From Eledone cirrhosa (taxonomy: Eukaryota): 64,000 bases of DNA. The stretch lies in NCBI GenBank assembly GCA_964016885.1, contig OZ024742.1, positions 175,026,001 to 175,090,000 of the forward strand, given 5' to 3'. Shown here piece after piece: positions 2,710 through 55,020 of the stretch. The notes beneath the pieces were generated by a model, which saw only the letters and a program-made list of their open reading frames with translations, ran no database searches and was not told where the DNA came from. A program made the position numbers and the translations under genes. Positions within the stretch are counted from its first letter, which is position 1. Each line of letters starts with the position of its first letter.

Positions 2710-5700
2710 CTATAGTCTGATGTAGAGTGAAGGCCCATTCACACGGGCCATTCTCGCCACTTTCACCCATCTTTCATAGAAACGGCTGGGGTGCAGCACC
2801 TCTCTCTCCATCCTGATCCTTCTTCCGAAATGATATCGGAAGAAAAGGACCAGTTGTTGGCCAGAGAGAAAGGTGTCTGACCTCAGTCCTTTCAGACGCG
2901 TCCACCATACAACCTCTTTCGCCATGGCTATTACGCACAGAAACACCGCCTCTCCTTCGTTTTTGAAGAGGGGAAGCGGCTTGATCGTTACAATAGACTC
3001 GGTGGTCAACCGGATCGGTCCCACCCTTGACAGCAGTTGTTCGACATAGCCCCACAGATCGGCAATGCCCGAGCAGTGTACCAATGCGTGTGCAACGGTT
3101 TCCTCGTCGCACACGCATCTGGGACAGACCTTTTTCGATGGGTCCCTACCCAGGCGCCCGTGTCTGTAGAGCCTTTCTCGAACGGGCAGAGCCCTTCTGT
3201 AGCATTGCCGGGCCAGGGACCTCTGGAAGTTATCCATGGGTCCCGGGCTGAATGTCCTACCGAACAGGATGGCCAGTTCGTCTTCCTCCATGACTAGGGC
3301 TTCTCCGAGGGCGTCGTCGCACCTGCTAACCACCAGCCCTCTATAGAATGACGAGGTGGATTCTCCACTGACAGCCGGGTCCGCCTGCCAGAGAGCCGTG
3401 AGCGCCTGGGCACACCCGCTGTGCCAGGCGCCCAGTTTTCTCGGTCTTTTCTTGACCCAGGATTGCAGCTCGGTGAGTGAGACGAGTCTGGGAAAGGCTC
3501 GCCTCACAAACGGGGCCCACACCGGTTGACCGAAGAGGAATACCTGAAGGTGCCGTAGCCTTAATGCGTGTTTACGTATCATTAGCCACGGCATTCCCAG
3601 CCCTGCTTTCGAAGGGTGTTGACAGCAGATGGATCTCCTCACCATAGGAGCCCGCTTCTTCCAAAGGAATTGGAAGAGTGCGCGCTCCATTTTGGCGAGC
3701 GTTTCCCTTGGGCAAGGCACCATGGTCAGGCGGTAGTAGATGACAGACGCTATATAAGTGTTCGCCACCTCCGCCCGACCTTTCAGGGACAGTTTGCACT
3801 CGGCCCACTTCTGGGTCAGTGCAAACACCCTGCTCGTCACCTCACCCCAGTTCTTCTCCACCTGGAGGTCTGGTCCGAACCAAACCCCGATCAACTTCAC
3901 CGGGACCTCCGTCCAGCGCCCGACGACGCCATCGGAGGGCATCGATCTGCCCCTCCACGTGCCGAGTTGCAGACCGATCGACTTGTCCCGGTTCAGCTTA
4001 GCCCCTGTAAACCTTTCGTACTCCTCCAGTAAGGTGCCGATCGCCCCGATTTCCGAGGCCGTCGACACCATTACTGTTACGTCATCGGCGTAGGCTGACA
4101 CCGCTTTCCGCAATCCCGGTTTCAACGGGATGCCCTGCAACAACTCCAACTTCCGCAGCAGTGGCTCTAGAGTCACTACATACAGAAGGGAGGAGAGAGG
4201 GCACCCCTGTCGGATTGACCGCGCGATTTCGAACGGCTCCGAGAGGTAGCCGTTCACCTTGACCCTAGAGCAGATGCGGCTGCTGTGCATGGCGTTGATC
4301 CAGCCCCTGAAAACGGGTCCGAAGCCTGCCGCCGCTAGCACCGTATCCAGGTAACCATGATCGACCCTATCGAATGCCTTAGATTGATCCAAGTTGATCA
4401 GGGCCCCACCAAAGCCGGGTTCGTTCCCAACCCTCTCTATGATGTATCGCATGAGGTGGAGGTTATCGTGGATGGACCTGGACGGGATAGCACATGTCTG
4501 CGCATCTCCCACCAGGTTGCCCACGACAAGCGCCAACCTCTTTGCTAGCACCTTGGCCAAAATCTGTAACTCTGTATTTATCAGAGTTATGGGCCTGAAA
4601 TTATTTATATCGTCCCCCTTGTTCTCGTCCTTCCTCACTAGCGTGACCACGCCCTTGCTCACAGCACAGGGAATTCTCCCGTTCTGTTGCCAGTTGCAGT
4701 AGACCGTCTCGAGGAGTTCGGGGAACAAGTCTGGCATAGCTAGATATAGTTCGTATGGAAGACCATCGAGACCCGGGGATTTGCGTTTGCCGCATTGGCT
4801 CAGCACGTCCTCTATCTCAGCGGCTGAAATCGGCTCCCCGCAGGACTTCGCCTCCCTGTCCGAGAGACGCGGCAGGCCGTCGATGTATGGACCGAAGTCC
4901 ACGTCCCCAACCGGCCCCCCGCCCCTTCCGAACAATTCGGCAAAGTGCTTTTGAAAAGCCTCGCACATCTGCTTAGGTTCAAGGATCACCCGTCCATCCT
5001 GGTCTCGCAAAGACCGGATAGTGGATCTGCTCCCTCTTTTGGCTTCTGTCACGCGGGCCCAGCTAACAGCTTTGGTCCCCTCGTTTCCCAGAGCACGTAT
5101 TTTGCTTCGGACGATGCAGCCTTCGTGTTTCGCGTCGAAGAACTGGCCCAGGGCCGTTCTTGACGCTAGCACTCTGGCCACGTCGCCGCTTCTAATTGCC
5201 TCTTCTACACTATCTACCAACTCCCTTTCCTTCCTATTTCTATTGGAGGCTAACTCCTTACTAAATTCTATAGAGACTACTCTAATCTCTCTTTTGAGAG
5301 ATCCCCACCACCTGCTGTTGACGATGGCGCCCGTCAACCGCTCCTTAACTAAAGTGCTAATCCGGTTCCTGTAAGCCTTACTTGCCGGTAAGGACAAGTT
5401 GAGCTTCCAGTAACCGGGTCCCTGTCTATGAGTTCTGTCAAGGTTGACCATGCAGGTCACTAATTTGTGGTCTGAATAGCCAACCATGCGCATTTTTGGA
5501 CAACTTAAAAAGTCCTTATCCTTAATTCTAACTAAGAACCTATCTAGGTACGACCTAGATGTTCCGCTACGATTTGCCCAAGTCCAGGTTGGCGCAGTCG
5601 GAAAATCTAGTCGATATCTATCGGCCAGGTCAAATCGACCGATTAATCCTTTGAGGCTATTACACCCCTCTCTATCGGGACAGGCCCCTACGTAGTCCCA

Positions 5701-6147
5701 GCGTGCATCTAGGATACCATTCCAGTCCCCCACTAATAGCAAGGAGCGGGACGTCCCTAGAAAAGTCTCCAGACGATGGAAGAAGTCCGGCCGCATTGAC
5801 CCGAAAGGGCCGTAGGCGGCTACCAACCTAAACGCTCCGCCTTTACCACTGCTAAGGTCCAGAACCACTAGTCGACCCTCCGGGTCCAAATGTACCGTCT
5901 GTGTTGCGAGACCCAGATGTTTTTGCAGCAGAACGACCACTCCACCCCCACCTCCGGGCTGACAGAGAGATGCGTGCATCTCAAAGTCATCAAAGGTGGG
6001 GGCCAGCTGTCGCACGTTGCTGATCCGGGCCTCGCAAATAACCATCACATCTATACGTTGTGACCTGAGGTCATTTAGAAGCATTGCTTGCTTCCAAGTT
6101 GAGCCCAGGCCACGCGCATTTAGACAGCCTACTTTTAGCATAGCCAT
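2710..6147 (-). CDS. Tx1 ORF2p: AP endonuclease, reverse transcriptase and C-terminal CCHC domain; uninterrupted
   Basis: GCLNARGL, GDWN, SYLDR, SDH (APE); KSPGLDG, FRPITLIN, DQSKAFD, RQGCPLS, YADD (RT); CPRC..ETVAHALVHC. First ATG at 6147; the track start at 6171 is a GTG. Confidence 0.95.
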   Translation of the reverse strand: MAMLKVGCLNARGLGSTWKQAMLLNDLRSQRIDVMVICEARISNVRQLAPTFDDFEMHASLCQPGGGGGVVVLLQKHLGLATQTVHLDPEGRLVVLDLSSGKGGAFRLVAAYGPFGSMRPDFFHRLETFLGTSRSLLLVGDWNGILDARWDYVGACPDREGCNSLKGLIGRFDLADRYRLDFPTAPTWTWANRSGTSRSYLDRFLVRIKDKDFLSCPKMRMVGYSDHKLVTCMVNLDRTHRQGPGYWKLNLSLPASKAYRNRISTLVKERLTGAIVNSRWWGSLKREIRVVSIEFSKELASNRNRKERELVDSVEEAIRSGDVARVLASRTALGQFFDAKHEGCIVRSKIRALGNEGTKAVSWARVTEAKRGSRSTIRSLRDQDGRVILEPKQMCEAFQKHFAELFGRGGGPVGDVDFGPYIDGLPRLSDREAKSCGEPISAAEIEDVLSQCGKRKSPGLDGLPYELYLAMPDLFPELLETVYCNWQQNGRIPCAVSKGVVTLVRKDENKGDDINNFRPITLINTELQILAKVLAKRLALVVGNLVGDAQTCAIPSRSIHDNLHLMRYIIERVGNEPGFGGALINLDQSKAFDRVDHGYLDTVLAAAGFGPVFRGWINAMHSSRICSRVKVNGYLSEPFEIARSIRQGCPLSSLLYVVTLEPLLRKLELLQGIPLKPGLRKAVSAYADDVTVMVSTASEIGAIGTLLEEYERFTGAKLNRDKSIGLQLGTWRGRSMPSDGVVGRWTEVPVKLIGVWFGPDLQVEKNWGEVTSRVFALTQKWAECKLSLKGRAEVANTYIASVIYYRLTMVPCPRETLAKMERALFQFLWKKRAPMVRRSICCQHPSKAGLGMPWLMIRKHALRLRHLQVFLFGQPVWAPFVRRAFPRLVSLTELQSWVKKRPRKLGAWHSGCAQALTALWQADPAVSGESTSSFYRGLVVSRCDDALGEALVMEEDELAILFGRTFSPGPMDNFQRSLARQCYRRALPVRERLYRHGRLGRDPSKKVCPRCVCDEETVAHALVHCSGIADLWGYVEQLLSRVGPIRLTTESIVTIKPLPLFKNEGEAVFLCVIAMAKEVVWWTRLKGLRSDTFLSGQQLVLFFRYHFGRRIRMEREVLHPSRFYERWVKVARMARVNGPSLYIRL

Positions 6148-6171
6148 GTTGGTGGTGAAGAGAAAAGGCAC

Positions 6172-8209: not shown

Positions 8210-8737
8210 CACCCAATAGTTTGAACTGGTTTATAGAATTCTCTTGGCCTTTGTCACTTTAAAGTAGAGCTTTAAAGAATTAGCTTTTAAAGAATTTCCC
8301 TTTTCTTTAAGCCCATCAACCATGACCGACTCCCAACGATCTTATAGACACCTTATAAGCATTGTTAGCTTAAGAGAAACTTAAAAATAAGGAGTGGCAC
8401 CCCATTCTGAACCTGTTTATAGAATTCTTTCTGCCTTTGTCACTCTAAATATAAAATATAGCCTTAAAGAATTAGCTTTTAATGAATTCCCTTTTCTTTC
8501 AACCAATGACCGCCACCCATCCTACTCCCCACCCTCTCCTACCACCTGAAAAGATATAAATACCACAACACTTATTTTTGGAAAGCCAGATTCCTGATGA
8601 TTTCTAAAGTATGAAACAGTTCTATTCCTGTAGAATCTCATCTATATTAAAACTTTTATACTCTGCTATGTATTATACTCTGCTAAGTACCTTACTTACT
8701 GTGGTTACCTCCAATTCAACCTGGAATAACTTACCTA
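8210..8737 (+). mobile_element. Penelope-like/retrozyme-like remnant with internal ~120-bp direct repeat, hammerhead motif and (TA)n end
   Basis: 8210-8335 resembles 8400-8520; hammerhead core at 8588-8638; ends at (TA)n 8737-8750. Confidence 0.5.
8588..8638 (+). ncRNA. Type I hammerhead ribozyme motif (stem II degenerate)
   Basis: AGATTC-CTGATGA-tttctaaagtat-GAA-ACAG-ttctattc-CTGT-A-GAATCT: perfect 6-bp stem I, 4-bp stem III, GUA triplet. Confidence 0.7.
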
Positions 8738-23109: not shown

Positions 23110-24588
23110 GGCGAAGGCTAGACGGAAGATCGCATGCACGAAGTCTGGTCTGAAGTACGCATGCGCGAAGACTGTTTCGAAGTGCGCATGGGCGAAGGCT
23201 GGTCCGAACTGCGCATGCGCGAAGGCTGGTTCATACTGCGCATTCGCGAAGCTTGATCCGTAATGCGCATGCGTGAAGTCTGGTACGTAATGCGCATGCG
23301 CTAAGGCTTGTCCGTACTGCGTATGGGTGAAGGCTGGTACAAAGTGCGCATGCGCGAAGGTTGATCCGTATAGCGCATGCGCAAAGGCTGGTCCGTACTG
23401 CACTTGCGCGAAGGCTGGTCCGTACTGCGCATGCGAAAAGGCTGGTCCGAAGTGGGCATGCAGGAAGTCTGGTCCGAAGGCGCATGCGTGAAGTTTGGTC
23501 CGAAGTGCGCATGCTCGAAGTCTGATGCAATGTGCGCATGCACGAAGTCTGGTCCGAAGTGCGCATGCGCGAAGTCTGGTCCAAAGTGCGCATGTGTGAA
23601 GGCGGGTCCGTACTGCACATGCGCGATGTCTGGTGCGAAGGTTGGTCCGTACTGCGCATGCGCGAAGGATGGTCCGTGCTGCGCATGCGCGAAATCTGGT
23701 CCGTACCTTGCATGTGCGAATGCTGGTCCTTACTATTAATGCGCGAATGCTGTTCCGTACTGCACATACGCAAAGTATGGGCCGAAGTGCACTTGCACGA
23801 AGTCTGGTTCGAAGTGCGCTTGCGAAACCTGGTCCGAGGTGCGCATGCGCGAAATCTGGTCCGAAGTCCACATGCGCGAAATCTGGTCTGAAGTGCACAT
23901 GCGCGAAGGCTGGTCAGAAATGCGCATGCGCTAAGGCTGGTCCGAAGTGCGCATGCCCGAAGTCTGACCCGTACTGTGCATGCGCGAATGCTGGTCCGTA
24001 CTGCTCATGCACGAAGGCTGGTCCGTACTGCACATGCGTAAAGTTTTGTCCGAAAGTGCGCATGCGCGAAGTCTAATCCGCAGTGCGCATGCGCGAAGGC
24101 TGGTCCGTACTGCGCATGCGCGATCTGGTCCGTAAATTGCATTCGTGAAGGCTGGTCCGTACCGCGAATGCATGACGGCTGGGCCGTACTGCGCATGCAC
24201 GAAATCTGATCCGAAGTGTGCATGCGCGAAGACTGCTCCGCACTGCGCAAGCACGAAGGCTAGTCTCCGTACTGCGTATGCACGAAGGCTTGCCCAAAGT
24301 GCACATGCGTTAAGGCTGGTCCAAAGTGGGCTTGCACGAAGGCTGGCCGAAGTTCGCATGTGAGAAGGCTGGACCGTACTGCGCATGCGCGAAGTCTGGT
24401 TCATACTCTGCATGCGCGAAGGCTGGTGAGAAGTGTGCATGCGCGAAGGCTGGTCCGAAGTTCACATGCGCAAAGTTTGCTCCGTACTGCGCATGCGCGA
24501 AGGCTGGTCCGAAGTGCGCATGCGCGAAGACTGGTCCGTACTGCGCACGCGTGAAAGCTGGTCAGTACTGCGCATGCACGAAGGCTTG
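23110..24588. repeat. 27-bp GC-rich minisatellite, about 55 units, each with TGCGCATGCGC
   Basis: Consensus TGCGCATGCGCGAAGGCTGGTCCG(TAC/AAG); flanked by (TA)n. The 9-codon period explains the many ORFs here. Confidence 0.97.
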
Positions 24589-51758: not shown

Positions 51759-52097
51759 ATAATATAAGATCAAAAGATGGTTAAAGGAGTTCAATATATT
51801 TTATTATGCGCATTTCAAAAACAAACATCATCAAACAATAATATTTGTGTTTTCATCAGATAAAACAGGAGAACATGATATGAAGGCTAAAAAAACACTT
51901 GTTGATAGTGCAGTTATGATATGTTGATATGTTGATTTAAAACTGCACTATCAACAAGTGTTTTTTTAGCCTTCATATCATGTTCTCCTGTTTTATCTGA
52001 TGAAAACACAAATATTATTGTTTGATGATGTTTGTTTTTGAAATGCGCATAATAAAATATATTGAACTCCTTTAACCATCTTTTGATCTTATATTAT
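51759..52097. repeat. Perfect long inverted repeat, 157-bp arms, 25-bp spacer
   Basis: 51759-51915 is the reverse complement of 51941-52097; no mismatch found by eye. Confidence 0.95.
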
Positions 52098-52123
52098 ATA
52101 TATATATATATATATGCATATAT

Positions 52124-53425
52124 ATGCTCTTCCTTGTGAGGCAATTACAGGAAAAGTACCTAGCTAAAAGTAAGCCACTCTACTTGGCATTTGTCGACCT
52201 TGAGAAAGCCTTTGACAGAGTTCTACGTGCAGTAATCTGGTGGGCTCTTAGAAAACTAGGAGTAGATGAATGGCTTGTGAAAGCGGTACAAGCCATGTAT
52301 AGGGGAGCAGTCAGCAAAGTTAGGATTGGCAATGAGTATAGCGAGGAATTTAGCGTACAGGTTGGGGTCCACCAGGGCTCTGTTCTTAGCCCTCTCCTGT
52401 TCATCATAGTCCTGCAGGCAATAACGGAGGAGTTTAAGACCGGATGCCCATGGGAACTCCTGTATGCTGATGACCTCGCACTCATAGCTGAATCTATGGT
52501 AGAACTAGAGAATAAATTCCAAACCTGGAAGCAGGGACTAGAGAGAAAGGGCCTCAAAGTCAACATGACAAAGACTAAGGTCCTTATAAGTAGACGAGAA
52601 AACAGAACCCAGATCCCCTCAGGGAAATGGCCTTGCTCAGTATGTAGGAAAGGTGTAGGTAGGAACTCCATTCTTTGCCCCAAATGCAAACAATGGGTAC
52701 ACAAGAGATGTAGCGGGATCTCAGGAAGCTTAATTAAGAATGTAGGATTCACATGCAGCAGCTGTGCTGAAACAGCAAGCAAACAGCCACAGGAAACAAG
52801 TACCACCAATCTCTGGGAGGGCCCTGTAGAAACAGTAGACAGCTTCTGCTACCTAGGTGACCGAATTAGCAACGGAGGTGGGTGCTCAGAAAGTACAATA
52901 ACTAGGGTAAGAACGGGATGGAAGAAGTTTAGGGAACTACTACCACTGCTAGCTGCAAAAGGCTTCTCCCTCAGAATGAAAGGCAGACTGTATGATGCGT
53001 GTATCCGAACAGCGATGTTGCATGGTAGTGAGACCTGGGCGCTGAAGGTGGAAGACTTACGTAGATTAGAGAGAAACGAAGCCTGCATGCTCCGATGGAT
53101 GTGTAACAGTAATATACGTGAACGACAAAGCATAAATGAATTGAGAGAGAGACTGAGCATAAGAGGAATCAAATGCTGCGTGCAGGAGAGGCGGTTACGC
53201 TGGTATGGACATGTGATGCGTATGAAGGATGACAGCTGCATAAAAAGGTGCAGAGCACTAGAAGTTGATGGAAACCGCGGAGTGGGGAGACCCAAGATGA
53301 CTTGGGATGAGGTGATAAAAGCCGACCTTACCCAACTACACCTCTCAAAGTCAATGACACACGACCGTGACTTCTGGCGTCACGCAGTAATACAGGGTAC
53401 CCGACCTCCCATGGGTACATGCTGA
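52124..53425 (+). CDS. RTE reverse transcriptase C-terminal half with embedded PHD-like finger (partial)
   Basis: FVDLEKAFD, GVHQGSVLSP, YADD, GLKVNMTKTK, C4HC3 insert, FCYLG, RRLRWYGHV, GRPKMTW. The ATG is at the truncation junction. Confidence 0.92.
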   Translation: MLFLVRQLQEKYLAKSKPLYLAFVDLEKAFDRVLRAVIWWALRKLGVDEWLVKAVQAMYRGAVSKVRIGNEYSEEFSVQVGVHQGSVLSPLLFIIVLQAITEEFKTGCPWELLYADDLALIAESMVELENKFQTWKQGLERKGLKVNMTKTKVLISRRENRTQIPSGKWPCSVCRKGVGRNSILCPKCKQWVHKRCSGISGSLIKNVGFTCSSCAETASKQPQETSTTNLWEGPVETVDSFCYLGDRISNGGGCSESTITRVRTGWKKFRELLPLLAAKGFSLRMKGRLYDACIRTAMLHGSETWALKVEDLRRLERNEACMLRWMCNSNIRERQSINELRERLSIRGIKCCVQERRLRWYGHVMRMKDDSCIKRCRALEVDGNRGVGRPKMTWDEVIKADLTQLHLSKSMTHDRDFWRHAVIQGTRPPMGTC

Positions 53426-53722
53426 AGCATATAAACAATATGCCCCCCCCCCACCGCAAGGTGGTCGTGGAGGTGCCACGGCAAAAAAGCACCCAGCCCA
53501 CACTGTAAAGTGGACGTGTAGGCGCCACGAAAAAGCACCCAGCACTCACTGTAAATGAGGTTGGTGTTAGGAAGGGCATCCAGCTGTAGAAATCAAGCCA
53601 GATCAGTTCCTGTATGAGCAAGGCATGGTCAGCCGACCAGACACTGCCCACAACAGGACAACCCGTCTAACCCATGCTAGCGTGGAAGAACGGACGTAAA
53701 ACGGTGATGATGATGATGATGA

Positions 53723-53759: not shown

Positions 53760-53907
53760 TATGTATATATATATGATTAAGTTAAAGATGTACATCCATA
53801 TATGTATACTGAAATACTAGTATGTATATGAATACACACACGTATACATATGTAGATGTACCAAGTTTTTTTTTTTTTTTCACTGGTTATTTGTTTTTAT
53901 ATATAGA

Positions 53908-54636
53908 TATACGCAGACTAGAGAGGAACGAAGCTTGCATGCTCCGCTGGATGTGTAACAGTAATATACGTGAACGGCAAAGCATAAACGAACTAAGGAA
54001 AAAATTAGAGATAAGAGGGATCAGATGTTGTTTACTCGAGAGAAGGCTGCGTTGGTATGGACACGTGATGCGCATGAAAGTCGATAGCTGTATTACAAAG
54101 TGCAGGGCAATAAAGATAGACGGTAGCCACGGAATAGGCAGACCTAGAAAAACATGGGATGAGCTGATAAACTCCGACCTCACACACTTACACCTCTCCA
54201 AGACAATGTCACTGGACCGTGACCTTTGGCGGTACTCAGTAACAGAGTAGACCCGCCTTGCCAGTAGGCATCTCTAACAAACTACACCCCGTCCCGCCAC
54301 CACCCCCACCCCATCCACACCACCCCGTTCTATGTAAAGTTATGTTGGTGCCGCGCCATCCAGGCCGAAACAAATGAGATCGTGTAGGTGTCACGACAAA
54401 AAAACACACAGTCCACGCTGTAATGTGGCCGTGTAGGCAACACGGTAAAAACCTCCCAGACCCACACTGTAAATGTGGTTGGTGTTAGGAAGGGCATCCA
54501 ACTGTAGAAAACCTGCCAGACAGTCCTATGCGAGCAAGACAATCACTCTTGCCTCAAGTGGGACTACCCCCGTCCAAACCCATGCAAGCGTGGAACACGG
54601 ACGTTAAACGTTGATGATGATGATGATGATGATGAT
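53908..54636 (+). mobile_element. Second 5'-truncated RTE (sister subfamily)
   Basis: RRLERNEACMLRWMC..RRLRWYGHV..GRPRKTW; different 3' UTR variant; (GAT)n tail. Confidence 0.92.
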
Positions 54637-54640
54637 ATGT

Positions 54641-55020
54641 ATGTATATATAGTGTATTTTGCCATACACTGTATACCTAATTAAAAGCATTTTGAAGACC
54701 TTACGCTATTGTTTTAAAGTAGTGACTATGTTACTTATTTCTTTTTTCAGCAGACAAAGGGAGATAAACTGACAGATCTCTGTTTCATATTGTTTGTACT
54801 CCTCAGAGTCTAGCACTCTCTTTGCCTGCTGAAAATTATGAATGTTGAATTCTTATAGAATTCGAGTAATAATCAGGAATTGATTATACAGAGCGGTTAC
54901 CGGTCCAGCAAAAATTGAAAATTAGAATTAGTGCTCTGAAATAGCGATATATATATGAATGTATATATAGTGTATTTTGCAATGCACTGTATGATTAATT
55001 AAAAGCATTTTGAAGACCTT
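54641..55020 (-). mobile_element. Hammerhead-bearing element with 62-bp terminal direct repeats, 318-bp period (retrozyme-like)
   Basis: 54641-54702 resembles 54959-55020; hammerhead lies between them. Confidence 0.72.
54744..54835 (-). ncRNA. Extended type I hammerhead ribozyme, near intact
   Basis: TAGACT-CTGAGGA-GTA-caaacaa-TAT-GAA-ACAG-agat-CTGT-C-AGTTTA. Stem I continues after an internal loop as a 20-bp helix TTTTCAGCAGGCAAAGAGAG/CTCCCTTTGTCTGCTGAAAA. GUC site between 54771 and 54770. Confidence 0.85.

Follow-up and report, generated by a model that had tools for sequence, protein, structure and literature searches.

In the accessible passages of PMC7229834, metazoan non-LTR retrozymes are described as non-coding, low-GC monomers of 150-450 bp that carry a type I hammerhead, occur as dimers to multimers and lack LTRs, and the family described here shares these features. 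The same passages propose that a Penelope-like element (PLE) or a LINE copies a circle by target priming, and the available part of a vertebrate study (bioRxiv 10.64898/2026.07.22.740005) proposes that retrozymes are non-autonomous PLE derivatives that use the PLE machinery. How retrozymes re-enter the genome is described as an open question in the accessible parts of both sources. In PLEs, two adjacent internal reverse-transcription starts define a tail (PMC11167929). A precedent for a protein-free PLE passenger is provided by the non-autonomous Chlamys elements (MRC1), most of which have no hammerhead according to the portions available of PMC8557442 and PMC11167929.

We analysed a 64,000-nucleotide stretch of the Eledone cirrhosa genome (hereafter the window, numbered from its first letter). 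Its hammerhead-bearing locus is probably a decayed, protein-free, 318-nt retrozyme that was inserted by a PLE copying an RNA that was itself probably circular.

The insertion in the window

The whole insertion occupies 386 nt of the minus strand (54635..55020), which amounts to 1.21 units of a 318-nt retrozyme unit. Unit coordinates (q) are given in the RNA sense, with q1 at window position 55020 and cleavage after q250. In this sense the insertion is 5'-truncated at 55020, and its 3' end at 54635 lies a few nucleotides before the short end of the family. Unit positions 1-68 are present twice, as a first pass at 54953..55020 (the 5' copy) and as a second pass at 54635..54702 (the 3' copy), both on the minus strand. 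The initial annotation had described 62-bp direct repeats 318 bp apart that end in TA repeats; the spacing of 318 is correct, but the repeat measures 68 bp with 62 of 68 positions identical, and the TA-like tract is internal to the unit. The segment between the family short end (unit 74/75) and long end (100), 54921..54947 on the minus strand, is designated the 26-nt tail by comparison with PMC11167929, and we infer that its bounds are reverse-transcription start sites. The reported absence of a reading frame holds, as no frame of at least 120 codons overlaps the insertion.

The 3' end of the insertion adjoins a (GAT)n LINE tail, and the 5' end adjoins a degraded stretch without TA. We take this stretch to resemble a LINE endonuclease; tblastn found no match there. 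Other LINE sequences in the window are a reading frame with endonuclease and reverse transcriptase (RT) at 2710-6171 (minus strand), one with RT and a PHD finger at 52076-53425 (plus strand), and a 3' fragment at 53813-54636 (plus strand); (GAT)n tails are located at positions 53708 and 54612. A different, minimal hammerhead with an 8-bp stem I and the loop 3 sequence UGCGCA forms an inverted pair at 51997 (plus) and 51859 (minus) beside a long (TA)n, and its motif also occurs in locus L110. A hammerhead-like motif of a short TA-targeting family, W, lies at 8594-8630 (plus) and recurs in L097, L101 and L110; in L028, a W end adjoins a retrozyme 5' end. Kinship between the retrozyme and family W was considered and rejected, because the likeness did not extend beyond the core and TA tracts. 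A GC-rich 27-bp minisatellite of 54 copies is found at 23111-24586.

Structure and condition of the hammerhead

The minus strand at 54744..54835 contains a type I hammerhead with an extended stem I. The core CUGAGGA (54800..54806) has the C3-G8 form. Stem II and loop 2 (54787..54799) are decayed: the strands GUA (54799-54797) and UAU (54789-54787) face each other with a G.U at 10.1-11.1, and a C.A replaces a C-G pair. The segment 54771..54786 consists of GAAA (54786-54783), stem III (CAG-AGAU-CUG with an A15.1-U16.1 pair and a near-palindromic loop) and GUC, whose last base is 54771. In stem I, UAGACU (54812-54807) pairs with AGUUUA (54770-54765), followed by an internal loop with UGC facing U and by a 20-bp helix (54835-54816 with 54763-54744) that contains one A.C mismatch and one G.U. 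The motif thus comprises CUGAnGA, GAAA, a UH cleavage triplet ending and three stems with stem I open, and hammerhead rules predict cleavage between 54771 and 54770. These elements agree with those first reported (catalytic core, 4-bp stem III, 6-bp stem I, internal loop and 20-bp helix with one mismatch). The 3-bp stem II of that description is present as three pairs, but it is really the 4-bp stem of the family in decayed form.

The fold of the 92-nt segment is unusually stable (z = -5.0; none of 200 shuffles was equally stable), although this fold differs from the hammerhead fold. The cmsearch that had been suggested as a check did not recover the motif: no Rfam hammerhead reached the gathering score, and at E values up to 10 the matches were due to chance.

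The window copy deviates from the column majority at 6.0% of positions, compared with a median of 3.8% in 49 loci. It has kept C3-G8 and lost the fourth stem II pair. Stem I could still pair despite its private changes, but these give rise to a competing hairpin, and the predicted stem I pairing is 0.0, compared with 0.48-0.97 in four other copies. Likewise, the predicted probability of the active fold is 6e-6, as against 0.002-0.02 in the same number of other copies. Judging from these fold predictions, the ribozyme of the window copy is probably inactive and expected to misfold. It had been singled out as the leading candidate for ribozyme activity, a claim that we abandon in view of the decayed stem II, the stem I predicted to be unpaired and at least 207 exact intact cores elsewhere. 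Two consecutive intact ribozymes are present in the family (the L037 pair), whereas the window locus has one ribozyme; it is an ordinary decayed insertion.

The family and its conserved fold

A first look yielded 2,796 candidates in the 3.0-Gb genome. Forty were scored and all were near full length; the 39 besides the window copy showed 90-93% identity and lay on many contigs. One 32-mer of the unit has 1,028 exact matches genome-wide. Further copies with the 318-bp period and tandem arrays, which the initial annotation had named as a check, are both present. Its proposal of a non-coding retroelement also stands, with a short 318-nt unit, one hammerhead in each, head-to-tail repeats and dispersed copies; non-LTR retrozymes are defined by a short non-coding monomer that holds a single type I hammerhead and is repeated head to tail.

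Four related subfamilies (A1, A2, B and C) were distinguished. A1 has G10.1-C11.1 and A2 has A-U at this pair, and together they account for 207 exact 35-nt cores. Among 100 listed of these 207, counted by hand, 72 have A-U, 27 G-C, one A.C and none G.U. Subfamily B, with 2,657 candidates and 79-85% likeness, has a shorter stem III; its loci L115-L143 share a unit of about 315 nt, copies 94-96% alike among themselves and the same two ends. Stem II of this subfamily starts with a U.U at its base, like the axolotl HHR_Amex2 in the accessible passages of PMC7229834. Its stem III is too short for stability as a monomer, and subfamily B likely works as a dimer. In subfamily C (102 exact 41-nt cores), the core UUGAUAA corresponds to U3-A8, a natural hammerhead covariation according to the available part of PMC4209133.

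In an alignment of 45 ribozymes from A and B, 93.6% of the cells at stem positions pair, as against 46-52% with slid partners. Two-sided changes, located in stems I and II and the long helix, number 124, a value reached in none of 500 shuffles, although related sequences inflate this test. The U and G of loop 1 are at least 90% conserved in the same alignment. A literature search on the tertiary contact between loops 1 and 2 found nothing. Among 200 A and C ribozymes, which include array units and are thus not independent, the 3-8 pair is C-G in 103, U-A in 79 and other in 18 (Watson-Crick in 182/200), and the 10.1-11.1 pair is G-C in 116, A-U in 65 and other in 19 (181/200). The proposed covariation check accordingly found compensatory stem and core-pair swaps across subfamilies. 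Because the stem pairs swap in this way, the hammerhead fold was kept while the subfamilies spread, which implies, as far as sequences can tell, that ribozyme activity mattered.

A donor-like GTAAGT lies 3' of the ribozyme (window 54738-54733, minus strand; mutated in the window copy), and an acceptor-like TTTCAG lies within the tail (54941-54936, minus strand). Genome-wide, no spliced-junction copy of a PLE-like 5' intron was found. In L017 (1674-1786), the ribozyme hairpin is missing in its entirety (about 100-110 nt) from some contigs, possibly because reverse transcriptase skipped it. Three contig sets from one sample contained variants like those of DNA, joints between opposite strands and joints that skip the hairpin; they are uninformative on expression.

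Ends, arms and targets of the insertions

The ends were mapped in 49 distinct long copies (60 retrieved, 11 duplicates removed). The 3' ends lie at q74 in 18 loci, at q99-105 in 25 and at q64-70 in 6, whereas the 5' ends are variable. A set free of length bias was obtained from the first 100 of the 1,028 32-mer matches, all on contig C1, which merged into 78 loci. Head-to-head arms are present in 57 of these 78. The outer ends could be classified in 41, of which 34 combine a short with a long end, four have two long ends and three have two short ends (p = 1.3e-5); the other 16 head-to-head loci have unclassifiable outer ends. TA flanks 93 of 121 arms. Two ORF-bearing PLEs in the same genome (L097 and L107) also show an inverted pair with one short and one long end.

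The family therefore combines fixed 3' ends, an optional tail, 5' truncation, an inverted arm and a microsatellite target, the features by which PLE mobilisation is recognised. We regard its assignment to the retrozyme class and its mobilisation by a PLE as very probable. In L227, a near-symmetric inverted insertion has short ends on both sides and an identical internal deletion in both arms.

Candidate partner elements

GIY-YIG sequences gave 10,596 candidates, and about 50 loci were examined from 150 listed matches. Loci L092, L097, L107 and L063 represent several PLE families in which the GIY-YIG domain is C-terminal, the targets are (TA)n and the short and long ends differ from family to family. 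None of the roughly 50 loci contains a PLE with sequence alignable to the unit, and no RT and GIY-YIG frame is attached at a fixed junction in these loci or in about 190 retrozyme loci. The initial annotation had reckoned with ordinary pseudo-LTRs attached to a PLE reading frame; there are none among the copies examined. L063 was considered as such a pseudo-LTR and rejected, being a sister-subfamily insertion into (TA)n at a PLE end.

In 192 loci, six of 77 free 5' ends join PLE sequence without intervening TA. The PLE is F2 in L223, L258, L259 and L266, and F1b in L155 and L267. These two families make up 1.1% of the flanks in 185 other loci (binomial p ~2e-4, a post hoc test prompted by L258, with 12 subfamily-C loci added afterwards). 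Each of the six junctions lies at a different point. Five are head-to-head, and the PLE arm reaches its own terminus in four of them, whereas in L267 it runs beyond the retrieved stretch. The junction in L266 keeps the same orientation and lies behind a 25-nt inversion. Because a microsatellite is lacking at 49 of the 77 free 5' ends, a TA-less junction alone is not special, and insertion into a PLE followed by deletion of one flank could alternatively give rise to such junctions. No direct retrozyme junction was found for other PLE families in the compiled set.

The long ends of F2 and the unit have the last 7 nt before (AT)n in common. Beyond this 7-nt end, there is no alignable similarity between the unit and F2 or F1b, and the tails differ in length (26 nt in the unit, ~64 nt in F2). 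F2 and F1b are likely the mobilisers. The distance from short to long end is 34 nt in another family, F4. By eye, F2 and F1b appear to carry minimal hammerheads of the U3-A8 form.

Template of reverse transcription

Among 123 arms, 84 continue past the cleavage site, 45 are longer than one unit and eight pass two sites; one ends within 2 nt of the site. At polymorphic columns, units in tandem agree in 749 of 912 comparisons (82%) and inverted arms in 835 of 963 (87%) within an insertion, compared with 54% between loci. L061 contains an array of 7.2 units. That in L258 has 14 full, near-equidistant units and terminates in a short end and (TA)n; the divergence of its units is flat (12.6-13.4% over spacings 1-9), and units 9 and 10 have about eight variants in common, a sign of later duplication or conversion. 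This array suits a single rolling event, although it would look much the same had the template been a homogeneous uncleaved multimer or had the array expanded quickly once inserted. The tandem arms of L027 and L043 change subfamily away from the cleavage site, and therefore template jumps or mixed templates occur. The read-through, the 14-unit array and the shared alleles bear out the proposal that the element was copied from a circular or multimeric RNA, and we favour a circle as the probable template.

We envisage that a copy with two intact ribozymes would be transcribed and would cleave itself, perhaps while dimerised via the palindromic loop 3, to release a 318-nt monomer that would be ligated into a circle. 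The RT/GIY-YIG protein of a PLE (F2 or F1b) would cut both strands of a (TA)n target, and cDNA would start at about unit 74 on one strand and about 100 on the other. Each cDNA would travel a variable distance round the template before the far ends are joined, which would give the redundancy, the inverted arms and rarely long arrays, with an occasional arm copied from the PLE's own RNA. The fuller form of this reading, in which an unrelated Penelope protein rolls the 318-nt circle from two starts for up to 14 rounds per event and one complex may take retrozyme RNA and PLE RNA for opposite strands, is put forward tentatively, at slightly less than an even chance.

The strongest competitor, which we nevertheless consider rather unlikely, is that the same PLE machinery copied a linear multimer that had been transcribed from tandem copies and left uncleaved; the ribozyme would then only free the RNA from read-through transcripts, or act late. 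An anole PLE in vitro used uncleaved RNA, its hammerhead was dispensable and unprocessed RNA was the main substrate (PMC11167929), and therefore a multimer template is realistic; in the available part of bioRxiv 10.64898/2026.07.22.740005, one of nine Xenopus retrozyme dimers was cleaved. The 7- and 14-unit arrays exist in the genome, the two mixed-subfamily arms are consistent with a multimer, and a homogeneous multimer would account equally well for the read-through and the shared alleles. However, long transcripts with intact yet uncleaving ribozymes would be needed although compensatory change keeps the fold. Furthermore, on the second pass eight arms run past the position of a cleaved 5' end and none halts there, and 100 listed of the 207 intact cores include a single same-strand pair 318 apart.

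A cleaved linear monomer would stop the cDNA at q251, which 84 of the 123 arms pass, and it could mimic a circle only if the RT jumped from its 5' end to a 3' end. The family does show template jumps (the two subfamily switches and those onto PLE RNA), but the two mapped switches are located elsewhere than the cleavage site, a junction gap is absent in the 45 aligned ribozymes and just the one arm ends at the site, so we consider this template very unlikely. We give about as little weight, or slightly less, to the idea that an unsampled autonomous PLE left these copies as ordinary pseudo-LTRs with 5' truncation. Every insertion feature is also a feature of PLE ends in the accessible parts of PMC8557442, and the PLE loci covered are a small share of the GIY-YIG candidates. 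Nevertheless, the sequence upstream of a unit is another unit, up to 14 times, and never coding; no reading frame runs on from the tail in 30 loci with an unusual base after it; and the scattered, mostly head-to-head PLE junctions argue against a fixed attachment. If the rolling-circle reading is true, the family holds the missing step of the retrozyme cycle as a DNA record. An existing in vitro PLE assay could directly compare circular with linear templates.

Comparison with known systems

The titles and abstract openings covered, with subscription journals mostly outside the scope, contain no retrozyme tails, pairing of short and long arms or PLE-retrozyme junctions, and the available main text of an octopus repeat annotation (PMC13282606) does not mention hammerheads. 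Circles and cleavage were shown for the coral, mussel and axolotl retrozymes in PMC7229834; for the present family they are predicted from DNA. Most copies here are dispersed insertions of 0.3-2.5 units, in contrast to the arrays of metazoan retrozymes; fixed ends, tails and inverted arms are all present here and are not described in the accessible passages of that source. The vertebrate retrozymes of bioRxiv 10.64898/2026.07.22.740005, as described in its available part, are similar in having dispersed monomers, few arrays and co-occurring PLEs. There, the link to PLEs consists of pseudo-LTR homology, as reported in Xenopus, whereas here it consists of insertion scars and direct junctions.

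The closest resemblance in insertion structure is to PLEs of the Neptune/Nematis type. According to the accessible portions of PMC8557442 and PMC11167929, these share 5' truncation, partial tandems, an inverted 5'-truncated arm, a tail on one side, insertion at (TA)n or AT-rich sites, and two adjacent internal RT starts with a hammerhead upstream of them. By the same sources, they differ in that the retrozyme has no reading frame, its 26-nt tail compares with 30-40 nt, and it carries a canonical hammerhead with a long stem I instead of a minimal one. The retrozyme class is already known, and the insertion footprints are unusually direct here: two start sites, the pairing of short and long arms, the lack of a stop at the cleavage site and junctions with PLE RNA, together with named candidate partner enzymes.
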